Of a DNA stretch of 64,000 nucleotides, positions 28,181 through 30,668 are shown in pieces. The position numbers were made by a program, and so were the translations under genes. Every line of letters starts with the position of its first letter. The stretch's first letter is position 1. Below the pieces are notes generated by a model. The model was not told the DNA's origin and did not search any database. It worked only from the letters and a program-made list of their open reading frames with translations. Source of the stretch: Thermoanaerobaculia bacterium (GTDB lineage: Bacteria; Acidobacteriota; Thermoanaerobaculia; Multivoradales; UBA5704); contig DASWME010000127.1 in assembly GCA_036399915.1 (NCBI GenBank), positions 14,305 through 78,304 of the forward strand. The letters are read 5' to 3'.

Positions 28181-28413
28181 TAACGCCGTTGAGACATCAG
28201 CTCCCGGCCTTTGCCGCACCCGAGGCAAGCCAACTTTCGGGAAAGCGGGGATTTGGGGACTCCACCCGGCCAGATCCGGCCGTTGCCTCACCGTCGCCTT
28301 TCTGGATCGGATGGGCCTCCAGCCCCGACCGCGAGACGCTCATCTCTCTCTGTCCTTGACGGCGCCAGGGAACCGCCATAAGATCCAGATGGCCAAGAAA
28401 ATGAACGACTTAG

Positions 28414-28566
28414 CCCCTCCTTCGCGCCCTCCAGGGACCGCCGACGCGTTGTCGACGAAGAACGACTCCCAGAACTCGAGGACCTCCTTCGGCATGCGGG
28501 ATTCACGGCCGTCGACCGCCTGGTCAACGAGTTCTTCCAGCCCGTGCTGGTCGCCACGAACCCGGT
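28414..28566 (+). pseudogene. 3'-terminal remnant (about 50 codons) of a methyltransferase-like gene, forming the left copy of the direct repeat that flanks the Fic island.
   Basis: It reads ...LPELEDLLRHAGFTAVDRLVNEFFQPVLVATNPVQP* and is preceded by an in-frame TAG. It is about 93% identical over about 105 nt to the 3' end of ORF 30268..30573. Confidence 0.6.
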
Positions 28567-28832
28567 CCAGCCGTGACGCTCCGCACCCGCCTACCTGCGA
28601 TGGACAGAGGCCCGCTGTCCGGCCGGCCTCTCCTTGCACCGCCAGGGGAAGAGACCGCCTGCCCTGACTCCTCCGCGCGAGCGCCTCCAGACCAGGATTG
28701 CGGTCTCGCAGAGCTGCGATCTCGACCGGCTGCGGATCGTATACGGCACCTGTCGGTTCGTCGATGCCATGGTATATTCGGGTAGCACGCTTTCTGTCCG
28801 CCTACTCGGCAGCGTCGCGATATACTATATTT

Positions 28833-30233
28833 ATGGCTGAAGAATCTCCCAGAGGTATCTACCATCCCATTCCTTCGTTCGAAGAGTGGGCCAAACAGCC
28901 TCTTGAGATGCGCTTTTGGGACGAAGCACTCGCGACACTTGAGTCCGAGAGACGTTCGGCCCCCCCGGAAGCCCTTCAGACCGCGGCCGAGATCGTAACG
29001 CGGGCGGCTGCCGTCGACACCAGCGCGATCGAAGGTTTCTACGAGGTAGATCGGGGCTTTACATTCTCCGTTGCGACACACGCGCCAACGTGGCAGGCCG
29101 CTTTCGATGAAAAGGGTGCGCAAGCCAGGAGCATGTTCGATGCGCAACTCCGAGCATTCGAACTCGTACTAGACGCGGCTACCACCCACCTTCCGGTTAC
29201 TGAGAGTCTGGTACGCGCCCTTCACGAACACGTCTGCGCTACCCAGGACACCTACAAGGTTTGGACCGCTGTCGGGTGGCAGGAGCATCAACTCCAGAAG
29301 GGTGCCTATAAGAGGTATCCCAACAACCCAAGGACTCCCGACGGAGTTGAGCACGCCTACGCACCGGTCGATGACGTTAGCCCCGAGATGGCGCGCTTAG
29401 TTGCGGAGCTTCAAGCCGAGAGTTTTCTTCAGGCGCCTCCTCCGGTTCAGGCCGCATACGCGCACTACGCCTTTGTTTCGATTCATCCGTTTCCCGATGG
29501 CAACGGGAGAGTTGCCCGCGCTCTTGCCTCAATCTATCTAGTTAGAGCCGCATCGATCCCCCTGCTTGTATTTGCCGACCAGAAGCCTCGCTATCTTGAT
29601 GCCCTCGCAGATGCGGATGGTGGCGACTATGCCGCCTTCTCCCGCTTTGTCCGGGACCGATCGATTGACGCTATCAATCTATTGGTAGGTAGCCTCCAGA
29701 GAGCCAAGCTTGCGCCTCTCGGCGATTTGCAGAGTCGAGCGAGTCGGCTTCACTACGCGACTCCCAGCCTGACACATGGTCAGGTTGACTCCCTGGCCGA
29801 CCGCCTCCTTCACGAGGCAATGAGCCAAGTGCATACGACGTTTGAACGCCTAGGCTTTCCGAAGGAGATTGCCGCTACTACTCAGATTCGGAGAGGAGAC
29901 GATCGGGGTCCCTTGCCTGGCTACCGCAGGCTGGGAAGGCCTGATCCTCCTGTTCTTGAGATCGTGGTTAAAAGTGCACCCCCGGCGGTGGCGGCGGTCA
30001 GTACAATCATACGTCCCCTTATTGCAAGGGAGGATCATCCGAACCCGGTTAGACTTGAGGAGCAGAAGCGGAGCCGACACTTCGACGTACGAATTGAGGA
30101 CCTTTTGCCCGAGATCTCGGTGATGGTGCACTTTAGGCTACAGACTTGGGTTGAAACCCTCCTTCTAAGTATGGTTGAGCAAGCAATCGAGCTCGGTCGA
30201 CAATCTTTAGAGAAATCCGGATGGAACGGGTAG
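28833..30233 (+). CDS. Fic/DOC family protein (probable AMPylase) with an N-terminal inhibitory-helix-like motif.
   Basis: Canonical Fic motif HPFPDGNGRVARAL. An [S/T]xxxE[G/N]-type motif TSAIEG lies about 200 aa upstream of the Fic motif. The start at Met MAEESPRGIYH falls within a segment of clearly lower GC. Confidence 0.85.
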   Translation: MAEESPRGIYHPIPSFEEWAKQPLEMRFWDEALATLESERRSAPPEALQTAAEIVTRAAAVDTSAIEGFYEVDRGFTFSVATHAPTWQAAFDEKGAQARSMFDAQLRAFELVLDAATTHLPVTESLVRALHEHVCATQDTYKVWTAVGWQEHQLQKGAYKRYPNNPRTPDGVEHAYAPVDDVSPEMARLVAELQAESFLQAPPPVQAAYAHYAFVSIHPFPDGNGRVARALASIYLVRAASIPLLVFADQKPRYLDALADADGGDYAAFSRFVRDRSIDAINLLVGSLQRAKLAPLGDLQSRASRLHYATPSLTHGQVDSLADRLLHEAMSQVHTTFERLGFPKEIAATTQIRRGDDRGPLPGYRRLGRPDPPVLEIVVKSAPPAVAAVSTIIRPLIAREDHPNPVRLEEQKRSRHFDVRIEDLLPEISVMVHFRLQTWVETLLLSMVEQAIELGRQSLEKSGWNG

Positions 30234-30267
30234 GACAGCCTGCCTGAAAGGTGCCGGTGCCAGAAGG

Positions 30268-30573
30268 GTGCGCCGGAATAGGTGCCAGGCTCTTATAGGA
30301 TCCCCTTCGGTGTGCGCGACACCCGCGCCGGACGCGTCGCCGTGTTCCAGGTGTGGGAACTTCATCGACAGCGCTCACTACGACCTCAGCATGTGCTTTG
30401 TCCACGACATCGACGGCGCTCCGCAGGCGCAGGTCTTTCGGTCCCGCTACCATGCCGTGCTCCTCCCAGAGCTCGAGGATCTCCTTCGGCGCGCGGGATT
30501 CACGGCCGTTGACCGCCTGGTTGACCAGTTCTTCCAGCCCGTGCTGGTCGCCACGAACCCGGACCAGCCGTGA
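30268..30573 (+). pseudogene. C-terminal fragment of a methyltransferase-like gene, forming the right copy of the direct repeat.
   Basis: It reads ...SMCFVHDIDGAPQAQVFRSRYHAVLLPELEDLLRRAGFTAVDRLVDQFFQPVLVATNPDQP*. Only the C-terminal approximately 60 aa look protein-like and there is no N-terminal SAM-binding region. The upstream space is occupied by the Fic gene. Confidence 0.45.
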
Positions 30574-30668
30574 CGCTGGAGGTAATGGAAACTCCGAAGC
30601 GTCGAATCTATACTCCAGCTCATGAAGTCACTCCTTATAGGTGTAAAGCGTTCGCCGCTGGCAATTCA

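Follow-up and report, generated by a model that had tools for sequence, protein, structure and literature searches.

The gene for a Fic protein in the window (the whole 64-kb stretch of DNA that was analysed) stands between two dead tails of a methyltransferase gene. The locus, part of a variable region (about 24.3–32.9 kb) of a Thermoanaerobaculia genome that is decaying and atypical in composition, is best read as an ordinary recombination scar and not as a recognisable mobile element. By its motifs and predicted fold, the Fic protein is a class II (autoinhibited) enzyme that carries the inhibitory motif in its own chain, and its gene looks compositionally foreign and horizontally acquired. 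Homology-mediated insertion-duplication of foreign DNA, followed by deletion, is the most economical mechanism for this arrangement and is proposed tentatively, at a probability a little short of even. The observation made in a preliminary description of this DNA is largely confirmed, with corrections, and its interpretation is partly supported. The features of the locus are as follows:

28356–28384, forward strand: sigma-70-like match TTGACG-17-TAAGAT, 9 of 12 positions, some 450 nt ahead of where Fic starts

28466–28580, forward strand: left direct repeat, a dead methyltransferase 3′ tail (codons ~216–252, stop at 28574–28576) plus 4 nt

28581–28740, no strand: GC-rich spacer (70.6% GC), 160 bp from the left repeat to the Fic upstream region

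28741–28832, forward strand: AT-richer tract (52% GC) immediately upstream of Fic

28833–30233, forward strand: intact Fic gene, 466 aa (PF02661, E = 1e-18)

30234–30287, no strand: 54-bp linker from the Fic stop to the right methyltransferase remnant, with GGTGCC three times

30288–30576, forward strand: right methyltransferase pseudogene, codons ~161–252, frameshifted near 30359 by a +1 insertion (one A), its 5′ end truncated beside Fic

30463–30577, forward strand: right direct repeat, the portion of the right pseudogene common to the left copy

30622–30640, forward strand: gene-start remnant (MKSLLI) of a small ribbon-helix-helix-like (RHH-like) gene

30669–31232, forward strand: GNAT (RimJ/RimL-type) acetyltransferase (PF13302, E = 2.7e-33), with 93% DNA identity to L007 (contig Ga0672946_0122783, JGI 3300082220), the closest relative

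The repeat copies at 28466–28580 and 30463–30577 have the same orientation, are identical at 106 of 115 nt (92%) and have no third copy within the window. Direct repeats of about 105 bp and about 93% identity had been reported here; they are real, with extent and identity adjusted to these values. Both copies encode LPELEDLLR(H/R)AGFTAVDRLV(N/D)(E/Q)FFQPVLVATNP(V/D)QP and then stop, as had been claimed. The repeat has sharp ends, the right one lying 4 nt past the stop codon, and a profile search identifies it as the tail of a class I SAM methyltransferase family of ~250 aa, comprising the last 36 codons and the stop, followed by 4 nt. The search had to be exhaustive: a word-indexed search with a 72-aa fragment gave three matches only, and Pfam and PDB sequence searches with the methyltransferase fragment gave no significant match. 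The fragment profile retrieved 286 proteins, the full-length members of which have 245–260 aa, match at the C-terminus and carry Methyltransf_25/11 at the N-terminus, bearing out the earlier assignment of the repeats to the 3′ end of a methyltransferase gene.

In full-length relatives, the Rossmann-type SAM-binding domain occupies N-terminal residues ~46–150. A domain search and tblastn failed to find it in either fragment of the window; both are therefore remnants, not genes, as the preliminary description had held. Aligned by tblastn to 17 full-length family members, the left copy covers only codons ~216–252 and the right copy only ~161–252. The left copy is thus a bare 36-codon tail with no gene body upstream, where the DNA is unrelated; read upstream in frame from the homologous part, the sequence reaches a stop after about 29 codons, and no ATG, GTG or TTG intervenes. 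A few tblastn alignments run about 11 codons further, past 28466, but this extension was rejected, the DNA there being unrelated to the right copy. The right copy, the extent of which had been understated, has 55 extra upstream codons (161–215) and runs through 30288–30576 with a frameshift: GSYRIPFGVRDTRAGRVAVFQVWE is read in one frame, the remainder from FIDSAHYDLSM... as far as the stop is read in the following one, and the frame-corrected product aligns to residues 165–252 of full-length family members. Elsewhere, 80 loci came out of an alignment-based genome scan for the methyltransferase family. Identity was no higher than 49% at any of them, and none had Fic in its vicinity; 75 have a full-length gene and five a 5′-truncated remnant. 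Truncated tails of the family are also seen in other phyla, one of them fused to a HicA-like gene.

The two copies differ by five synonymous and four non-synonymous substitutions (dN/dS 0.26, Fisher p about 0.05, with nine substitutions in all), and the dS between them, 0.20, is no lower than the value of 0.13 between orthologues in the window and its closest relative. Duplicates that arise at insertion and then drift are expected to show neutral differences. Because the copies differ mainly synonymously, their sequences suggest that the two tails derive from two genes, each functional at one time, and not from a recent duplication, which speaks against the earlier claim that the insertion itself duplicated its target. 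These values fit long co-existence of functional genes, as would be expected if two tandem or nearby methyltransferase genes had diverged and the Fic cassette (about 28741–30287) had later landed between them, removing codons 1–160 of the right gene, with a separate deletion removing codons 1–215 of the left. The GC content of both tails and of the 160-bp spacer is host-like, some genomes hold two family copies (L026 and L028 come from one MAG) and truncated remnants of the family occur as noted above, all of which agree with such old paralogues. This history is nonetheless unlikely: it requires more events (the gene must duplicate and both copies co-exist for long, after which come an insertion-deletion and another deletion), homology ending 4 nt past the stop would put the boundary of a tandem unit exactly at a gene end, and no relative with two intact copies turned up in genome or metagenome scans.

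The Fic gene itself is intact. Its product scores 68.3 bits against PF02661, for which the cut-off is 24, and contains the catalytic motif HPFPDGNGRVAR, which fits HxFx(D/E)GNGRxxR and in which H218, F220, D222, G223, N224, G225, R226 and R229 are invariant among 66 homologues. The motif T63-S-A-I-E67-G68 fits the inhibitory (S/T)xxxE(G/N), T63 and E67 being invariant and G68 at least 90% conserved in the same set, and residues 45–66 are helical in the AlphaFold2 model (pLDDT 94). The gene length, the full catalytic motif and TSAIEG had all been recognised in the preliminary description, and the Pfam match and conservation agree with it. Class II proteins are the best Foldseek matches to the N-terminal ~290 aa of the model, FICD and BT_2513 matching the predicted fold of residues ~1–290 with E about 1e-9 and target-normalised TM of 0.6–0.8. 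FICD/HYPE, BT_2513 of Bacteroides and SoFic of Shewanella share with this Fic the HxFx(D/E)GNGRxxR motif and an in-chain (S/T)xxxE(G/N) in an N-terminal helix. Unlike FICD, it lacks a TPR domain, and it differs from these class II proteins in its length of 466 aa and in a C-terminal domain of ~170 aa, modelled as a helix, a five-stranded sheet and a long helix; this domain is uncharacterised, and a structure search with the predicted model gave no PDB match to it.

In class I Fic toxin-antitoxin modules (VbhT/VbhA, FicT/FicA), the inhibitory motif resides in a separate small antitoxin. The Fic catalytic core is common to those modules and to the present protein, which has the inhibitory motif within its own chain; the ORF list at the locus contains no credible small antitoxin ORF adjoining Fic. 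With catalytic and inhibitory motifs in one chain, the protein is assigned to class II and not to toxin-antitoxin toxins, and its earlier characterisation as toxin-like cargo was overstated. The enzyme most likely AMPylates a target protein when its inhibitory glutamate, E67, has been moved aside, and it may, like SoFic, act in defence against phage. The PADLOC HMM for SoFic matches this Fic with E = 4e-23 and 80 bits over profile positions 29–265 of 361, a score for which no curated cut-off exists; the phmmer match to SoFic structures is limited to the catalytic loop (residues 201–245, 28.6 bits) and the C-terminal domains of the two proteins differ.

The protein belongs to a family of ~465–480-aa class II Fic proteins with more than 1200 homologues at E <= 1e-10. 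A 466-aa form is on record (P0004); an exact look-up of the ORF minus its first codon returned no match. Compared to a 76% homologue, Fic is constrained, with dN of 0.15 and saturated dS. Its GC content is 57.4% (GC3 58.9%), the 1.2th percentile among 1400-bp windows of a sequence that averages 67.6% GC, and the GC3 of neighbouring genes is 72–97%. The low-GC tract (about 28741–30240) comprises only Fic and ~90 bp upstream and not the full inter-repeat interval: the island of low GC that had been described is real over this part and does not include 28581–28740, at 70.6% GC. That spacer has no homology to the DNA downstream of the right repeat or to L007. The 28741–28832 tract presumably carries expression signals of Fic's own. 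A promoter had been placed at 28367–28395, just upstream of the left repeat; the site is really at 28356–28384, about 11 nt off, and with two sigma-70-like sites in 3.7 kb, as compared to 0.7 ± 0.9 in shuffled sequences, it is not significant. Terminator-like sites were not found at the locus, and tRNA, tmRNA and Rfam families were not found near it. The sequence CTTATAGG, present at two junctions, was considered as an element end and rejected: one copy merely opens the remnant of the RHH gene, and the low-GC tract contains all three copies.

The orthologues of Fic are single genes in each of five contexts unrelated to one another. In four contexts unrelated to the present locus, too, their GC3 is below that of their neighbours. 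At the locus of the closest orthologue (L002), DNA homology stops at 30239. The methyltransferase fragment is in none of the five contexts examined, and no flanking repeats surround Fic orthologues elsewhere. Repeats of this kind do have a precedent: in E. coli, e14 and phage 21 insert in icd, leaving a direct repeat of the 3′ end of a protein-coding gene that is moderately diverged (PMC6379469). A repeat of ~115–165 bp that ends at the gene end is common to e14/icd and the present locus, and repeats of ~100–160 bp from a gene 3′ end with mostly synonymous differences are the e14-in-icd signature (PMC6379469). Elements of this type target a protein-coding gene at its 3′ end, for which they carry a substitute. 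The locus could be what remains of a site-specific element that has lost its integrase and most of its body, Fic being the surviving cargo; Fic is compositionally foreign, and relatives of it are found on one phage and one plasmid. Several observations make this decidedly improbable, and they tell likewise against the site-specific insertion suggested earlier. No integrase or recombinase is encoded between the repeats or within ±10 kb, extending a point already made in the preliminary description; Between the repeats there is no gene other than Fic, and the locus encodes no mobility functions. The target gene is not restored at either end, and the orthologues, as stated, have no flanking repeats. 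Unlike in e14/icd, the two fragments are on the wrong sides: the short copy beside native downstream DNA is expected to be the displaced tail, and it is the right copy that is longer, with its 55 extra upstream codons. Finally, the interval here is only 1.9 kb with a single gene.

The DNA to the right of the repeats bears on which flank is native. The right copy adjoins downstream DNA common to L007 at 93–94% identity, and the position of the GNAT gene relative to the methyltransferase tail is the same in L007. At the RHH remnant L007 has 343 bp more, a DUF2442 ORF included; the corresponding deletion in the window is bounded by the 4-nt microhomology AGGT. The L007 sequence begins inside the repeat, with left, right, right, right and left alleles at five informative sites, a pattern that a single crossover would explain only together with one extra mutation. 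Because L007 parts from the window right after the GNAT gene, the “native” flank is not secure. GNAT orthologues at 70–74% identity (L008–L013) have no conserved synteny and hence are uninformative on the ancestral site. An empty site, an intact methyltransferase gene at the site, or a donor arrangement of methyltransferase and Fic was not found in any relative examined, none of the close ones having sequence across the site, and the check for an empty site proposed earlier thus gave none. A genome scan with Fic and a metagenome scan with the corrected 92-aa methyltransferase fragment found nothing; eight loci from an exact 23-mer scan lack methyltransferase homology and are chance matches. 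The outcomes that the preliminary description had set against itself, uniformly high GC with an intact single methyltransferase gene or repeats unrelated to each other, were not obtained.

Campbell-type insertion-duplication and homology-facilitated illegitimate recombination are established from suicide-plasmid integration and natural transformation. As in these processes, direct repeats of a host gene segment flank foreign DNA, no recombinase gene is required, one 5′-truncated copy lies beside native downstream DNA, here the block of RHH remnant and GNAT gene common to L007, and the copies differ as donor and recipient alleles would. In the insertion-duplication proposed here, ~2 kb of DNA from a related donor, comprising a methyltransferase 3′ fragment, the downstream spacer and Fic, would have entered the cell and recombined with the resident methyltransferase gene via the common segment. 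The piece would have circularised and undergone one Campbell-type crossover, or else homology would have acted on one side only and been combined with an illegitimate joint near codon 161. The product would have been a full gene with a donor-type tail, the spacer, Fic, a 5′-truncated copy (codons 161–252) and native downstream DNA. A later deletion would have taken codons 1–215 from the left copy; the right copy would have been dead from the outset and have gained its frameshift; and a further microhomology deletion would have taken most of the downstream RHH/DUF2442 pair. RecA-type recombination between the repeats today could only delete Fic. Three elements of this history are inferred: the sequence of its steps, the route (Campbell-type or by one-sided homology) and a donor in which methyltransferase and Fic were adjacent. 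A dS of 0.20 and dN/dS of 0.26 would be expected of a tail contributed by a donor gene that was functional and had diverged, and deletion has been repeated nearby, as evidenced by the RHH remnant with its AGGT microhomology and by the gene-poor 26.6–28.8 kb, about 2 kb that lack credible genes.

The locus departs from the established process in that the complete left gene copy is missing and the event is reconstructed from a single decayed product. The copy that should be complete at its 5′ end starts at codon ~216, so an extra deletion must be assumed; likewise, the 160 bp beside the left repeat are host-like in GC, and the inserted piece would itself be a mosaic. The earlier view that an insertion duplicated its target survives in its homology-mediated form, the most economical option, and not as a one-step event, which predicts a gene body upstream of the left copy, where there is none.

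Both copies share an exact 36-mer, and substitutions that distinguish them are also present. A Logan contig with the same 30-mer at both ends was considered as a circle and rejected, since a k = 31 graph gives such a pattern at a repeat. The source is a metagenome-assembled genome, and the Logan contig breaks exactly at the shared 36-mer, as it might if the duplication and its junctions came from mis-joined strain variants of one methyltransferase gene. Such an artefact is scarcely credible: JGI, ENA and NCBI contigs (45, 66 and 130 kb), from assemblies made independently, have the same arrangement at 100% identity, the inter-repeat part is in the Logan contig, also at 100% identity, the 36-nt repeat is shorter than the read length, and the left homology boundary (28466) lies 64 nt upstream of the 36-mer, where a mis-join within it cannot create a boundary.

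A more active role for the repeats is very improbable. The ~2.0-kb unit of methyltransferase tail, spacer, Fic and linker would be a hitch-hiking cassette that lacks a recombinase and spreads among related genomes, with the conserved 3′ fragment of a methyltransferase gene of common, housekeeping type carried as a handle for RecA-dependent Campbell integration and circles excised via the repeats. The identical 30-mer ends of the Logan contig and the recurrence of methyltransferase tails in other phyla would fit such a cassette. If the cassette did use a carried gene fragment as a homology handle, genes would have a simple and under-appreciated way to spread horizontally; the present data fall short of showing this.

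The locus is a well-documented case of the entry of single accessory genes, perhaps defensive ones, into high-GC genomes of Acidobacteriota with no visible mobility gene, short duplicated gene tails being the scars left behind. It also defines a widespread family of class II Fic proteins of ~465–480 aa, the gene for which stands alone and has lower GC than its neighbours in every context examined.

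The Fic gene lies between two direct copies of a 115-nt repeat (28466-28580 and 30463-30577, 106/115 identical by repeat finder, MAFFT and BLAST), with no third copy in the window by repeat finder or BLAST. The preliminary description had reported about 93% identity, the same orientation and a shared peptide, and each of these is confirmed. The homology has abrupt boundaries on both sides, the right one falling 4 nt past the TGA stop (28574-28576 in the left copy).

Features of the window referred to in the text
28833-30233: Fic gene, 466 aa (PF02661, E = 1e-18)
30288-30576: right methyltransferase remnant, with one extra A near 30359
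60465-61385, minus strand: Cys-rich 306-aa ORF neighbouring the GC-poor tract 58401-60501

The fragment has no matches among Pfam, NCBIfam or PDB sequences, and a word-indexed protein search with it returns three short proteins only; an exhaustive HMMER profile search recovers 286. Full-length matches have 245-260 aa, with Methyltransf_25/11/12 domains at residues ~46-150 and the fragment as their extreme C-terminus; P0359, a 253-aa family member, shares 62% identity with the window fragment. Of 80 genome loci spread over many phyla, 75 have the gene at full length. Together, the profile matches and full-length loci identify the repeat as a copy of a methyltransferase 3' end, as first proposed. 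The right copy extends further than first noted: an adjacent reading frame encodes GSYRIPFGVRDTRAGRVAVFQVWE, which, joined to FIDSAHYDLSM..., aligns with residues ~165-252 of full-length members and thus defines the remnant; the family consensus at the frameshift site is W-D-F. The left copy retains codons ~216-252 only; the sequence before it is unrelated, contains an in-frame stop and lacks a start codon. No N-terminal remnant of the family is found in the window by tblastn with 17 full-length members, so both copies are indeed remnants. A Tam-like methyltransferase encoded on the minus strand, at 25783-26601, belongs to a different family.

Truncated tails of this gene occur elsewhere. Five of the 80 loci carry 5'-truncated 3' fragments (match near 6001-6260 in L024, L026, L029 and L098; 1888-2142 in L089), which begin near codon ~118-124 or ~160-172. 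The L026 fragment is joined to an unrelated N-terminus at the window's fusion point, just before KPYGVR, and that of L029 is fused to a HicA-like sequence. Metagenomic proteins include similar chimeras: P0003 combines DUF2818 with the tail, and P0124 an N-terminal 33 aa with the tail.

The Fic protein is intact and has both motifs originally described: across an alignment of 66 homologues there is no variation in the catalytic residues of HPFPDGNGRVAR or, in the N-terminal inhibitory-type motif TSAIEG, at T63 and E67. In an AlphaFold2 model (pLDDT 94.3), residues 1 to ~290 align structurally with FICD/HYPE and BT_2513, both class II Fic proteins, and the C-terminal ~170 residues, a predicted helix, five-stranded sheet and long helix, have no PDB match. 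By its motifs and predicted fold, with the inhibitory motif in the same chain, the protein is a self-inhibited class II enzyme rather than the toxin component of a two-gene system; there is no small partner ORF beside it, and the label of toxin-like cargo has to be dropped. The PADLOC model for SoFic, a single-gene anti-phage system of Shewanella, scores 80 bits, but because direct similarity to SoFic itself is confined to the catalytic loop, a role in defence is only a possibility. Against a 76%-identical homologue, dN is 0.15 with dS saturated, which implies strong constraint on the protein.

More than 1200 Fic homologues are found at E <= 1e-10. Orthologues of 55-76% identity were inspected in four more contexts (L002, L003-5, L006, L104): in each, the gene stands alone amid unrelated neighbours and has a GC3 below theirs, and neither a methyltransferase fragment nor flanking repeats accompany it in any of the four. 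DNA similarity between the window and L002, the locus of the closest orthologue, is restricted to the ORF (28846-30239). Distant relatives reside on one phage and one plasmid.

The window has 67.6% GC and the Fic gene 57.4% (GC3 58.9%); GC3 of its neighbours is 72-83% within ~24.3-32.9 kb and, beyond, mostly 87-97% (one at 82%). The AT-rich island of the preliminary description is real but smaller than the inter-repeat interval: the low-GC tract runs from about 28741 to 30240, and since the 160 bp adjoining the left repeat (70.6% GC) and both methyltransferase fragments (about 65-66%) are GC-rich, it comprises Fic and ~90 bp upstream. The sigma70-like promoter proposed for it fares worse: the match (9/12 positions) lies at 28356-28384, the frequency of such matches falls in the range of shuffled sequence, and it is 450 nt from Fic, with the dead methyltransferase tail intervening.

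All called genes in ~24275-32942 (~8.7 kb), which encode a trypsin-like 489-aa protein, the Tam-like methyltransferase, a 151-aa ORF, Fic, GNAT, a 122-aa ORF and an esterase, have GC3 of 0.59-0.83, against 0.87-0.97 for nearly all flanking genes, suggesting that Fic is the compositional extreme of a wider accessory region. The 489-aa protein (24275-25744; C-terminal domain PF13365) weakly matches the PADLOC RT-Protease_XI and LmuA models (E 8e-5 to 1e-2), a faint hint that it may be a defence-related neighbour. The sole other tract as GC-poor as Fic, 58401-60501, adjoins a trehalose-phosphatase gene (57068-57862); the ORFs at 58719-59450, 59447-59785 and 59667-60092 and the Cys-rich ORF have no Pfam match.

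The nearest relative of the locus, the 2.2-kb JGI contig L007, begins inside the repeat and is informative only from the tail rightward. It shares with the window, at 93-94% identity, the last 22 methyltransferase codons, the stretch up to GNAT and the GNAT gene, past which the two diverge. Between tail and GNAT, L007 has 343 bp extra (block at 119-458), which include the start of a ribbon-helix-helix-like gene and a DUF2442 ORF (PF10387, E = 1.4e-13); in the window, the first six codons of the former are left (MKSLLI, 30622-30640), and AGGT microhomology borders the deletion. The ~2 kb at 26.6-28.8 kb hold no credible gene and an unusual hairpin array. Together with the AGGT-bounded deletion, this gene-poor stretch marks a region of repeated insertion and deletion. 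The array (27148-27542), ~900 bp before the left repeat, has a 23-nt palindrome (GGAGGGAAnnnnnnnTTCCCTCC) 10 times in tandem, with strictly 41-42 nt from one copy to the next and a higher-order periodicity of 83/124 nt; elsewhere in the window the unit is absent (chance expectation 0.5). It has no Rfam match, and a CRISPR was ruled out, the spacers being too short and too alike. The 54-bp linker from the Fic stop to the methyltransferase remnant (30234-30287) contains GGTGCC three times (AAAGGTGCCGGTGCCAGAAGGGTGCGCCGGAATAGGTGCCA).

The left and right tails differ by 9 substitutions, 5 synonymous and 4 non-synonymous (dS 0.20, dN 0.05, dN/dS 0.26; Fisher p about 0.05); dS between the GNAT orthologues of the window and L007 is 0.13. 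Over the 74 nt common to all three tails, right and L007 differ at 3 positions, left and L007 at 4, left and right at 5. The tails are thus no closer to each other than orthologues of two related genomes. Few as they are, these substitutions argue that the tails probably diverged mostly under protein-level constraint, and against copies identical at insertion that then drifted. Two old paralogues, followed by Fic insertion and two deletions, are a less probable origin, though one to be taken seriously.

The fewest events are needed by a homology-based insertion-duplication followed by left deletion and right frameshift, a reading drawn from one decayed product and favoured tentatively. Foreign DNA of ~2 kb, in which Fic followed a methyltransferase 3' fragment and the spacer downstream of it, would recombine with the resident gene; either a circular form would integrate by one Campbell-type crossover, or homology on one side would be combined with illegitimate joining near codon 161. 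This would yield, in order, the whole gene, spacer, Fic, codons 161-252 and native downstream DNA; the left copy would later lose codons 1-215 by deletion and the right gain a frameshift. Such an insertion-duplication would explain the truncated right copy beside shared downstream DNA, the end of homology shortly after the stop codon, the bias towards synonymous changes between the tails and the absence of a recombinase. The insertion with simple target duplication first suggested predicts that the body of the gene precedes the left copy and that the right one is a short tail, the opposite of what is observed. Site-specific integration of the e14/icd type likewise makes the right copy the displaced, short tail and keeps the body with the left (PMC6379469); here the longer fragment is on the right, no gene is reconstituted and, as already remarked in the preliminary description, no integrase is present (within +/-10 kb), making a remnant of an e14-like element improbable. 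An assembly artefact is very improbable, because independent assemblies agree (the window matches JGI 3300034402 Ga0334960_000087, and exact look-up finds its proteins on an NCBI third-party MAG and an ENA assembly as well) and the left homology boundary is 64 nt away from the sole long exact shared run. The Logan contig L103 (SRR10954981) equals window 28536-30562 (2027 bp, 100% identity) and has the same 30-mer, inside the repeat, at both ends, as expected where a k=31 graph breaks in a repeat; a circle or a tandem arrangement would look the same.

The preliminary description thus recorded a real feature, for the most part accurately, and its general picture of a foreign Fic gene, a duplicated gene tail, no integrase and homology as a possible route was right in spirit; it erred on simple target duplication, toxin cargo, promoter and island extent. 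The locus amounts to an unremarkable horizontal-acquisition scar within a variable region, and the intact Fic gene it holds belongs to a well-conserved, uncharacterised class II subfamily.
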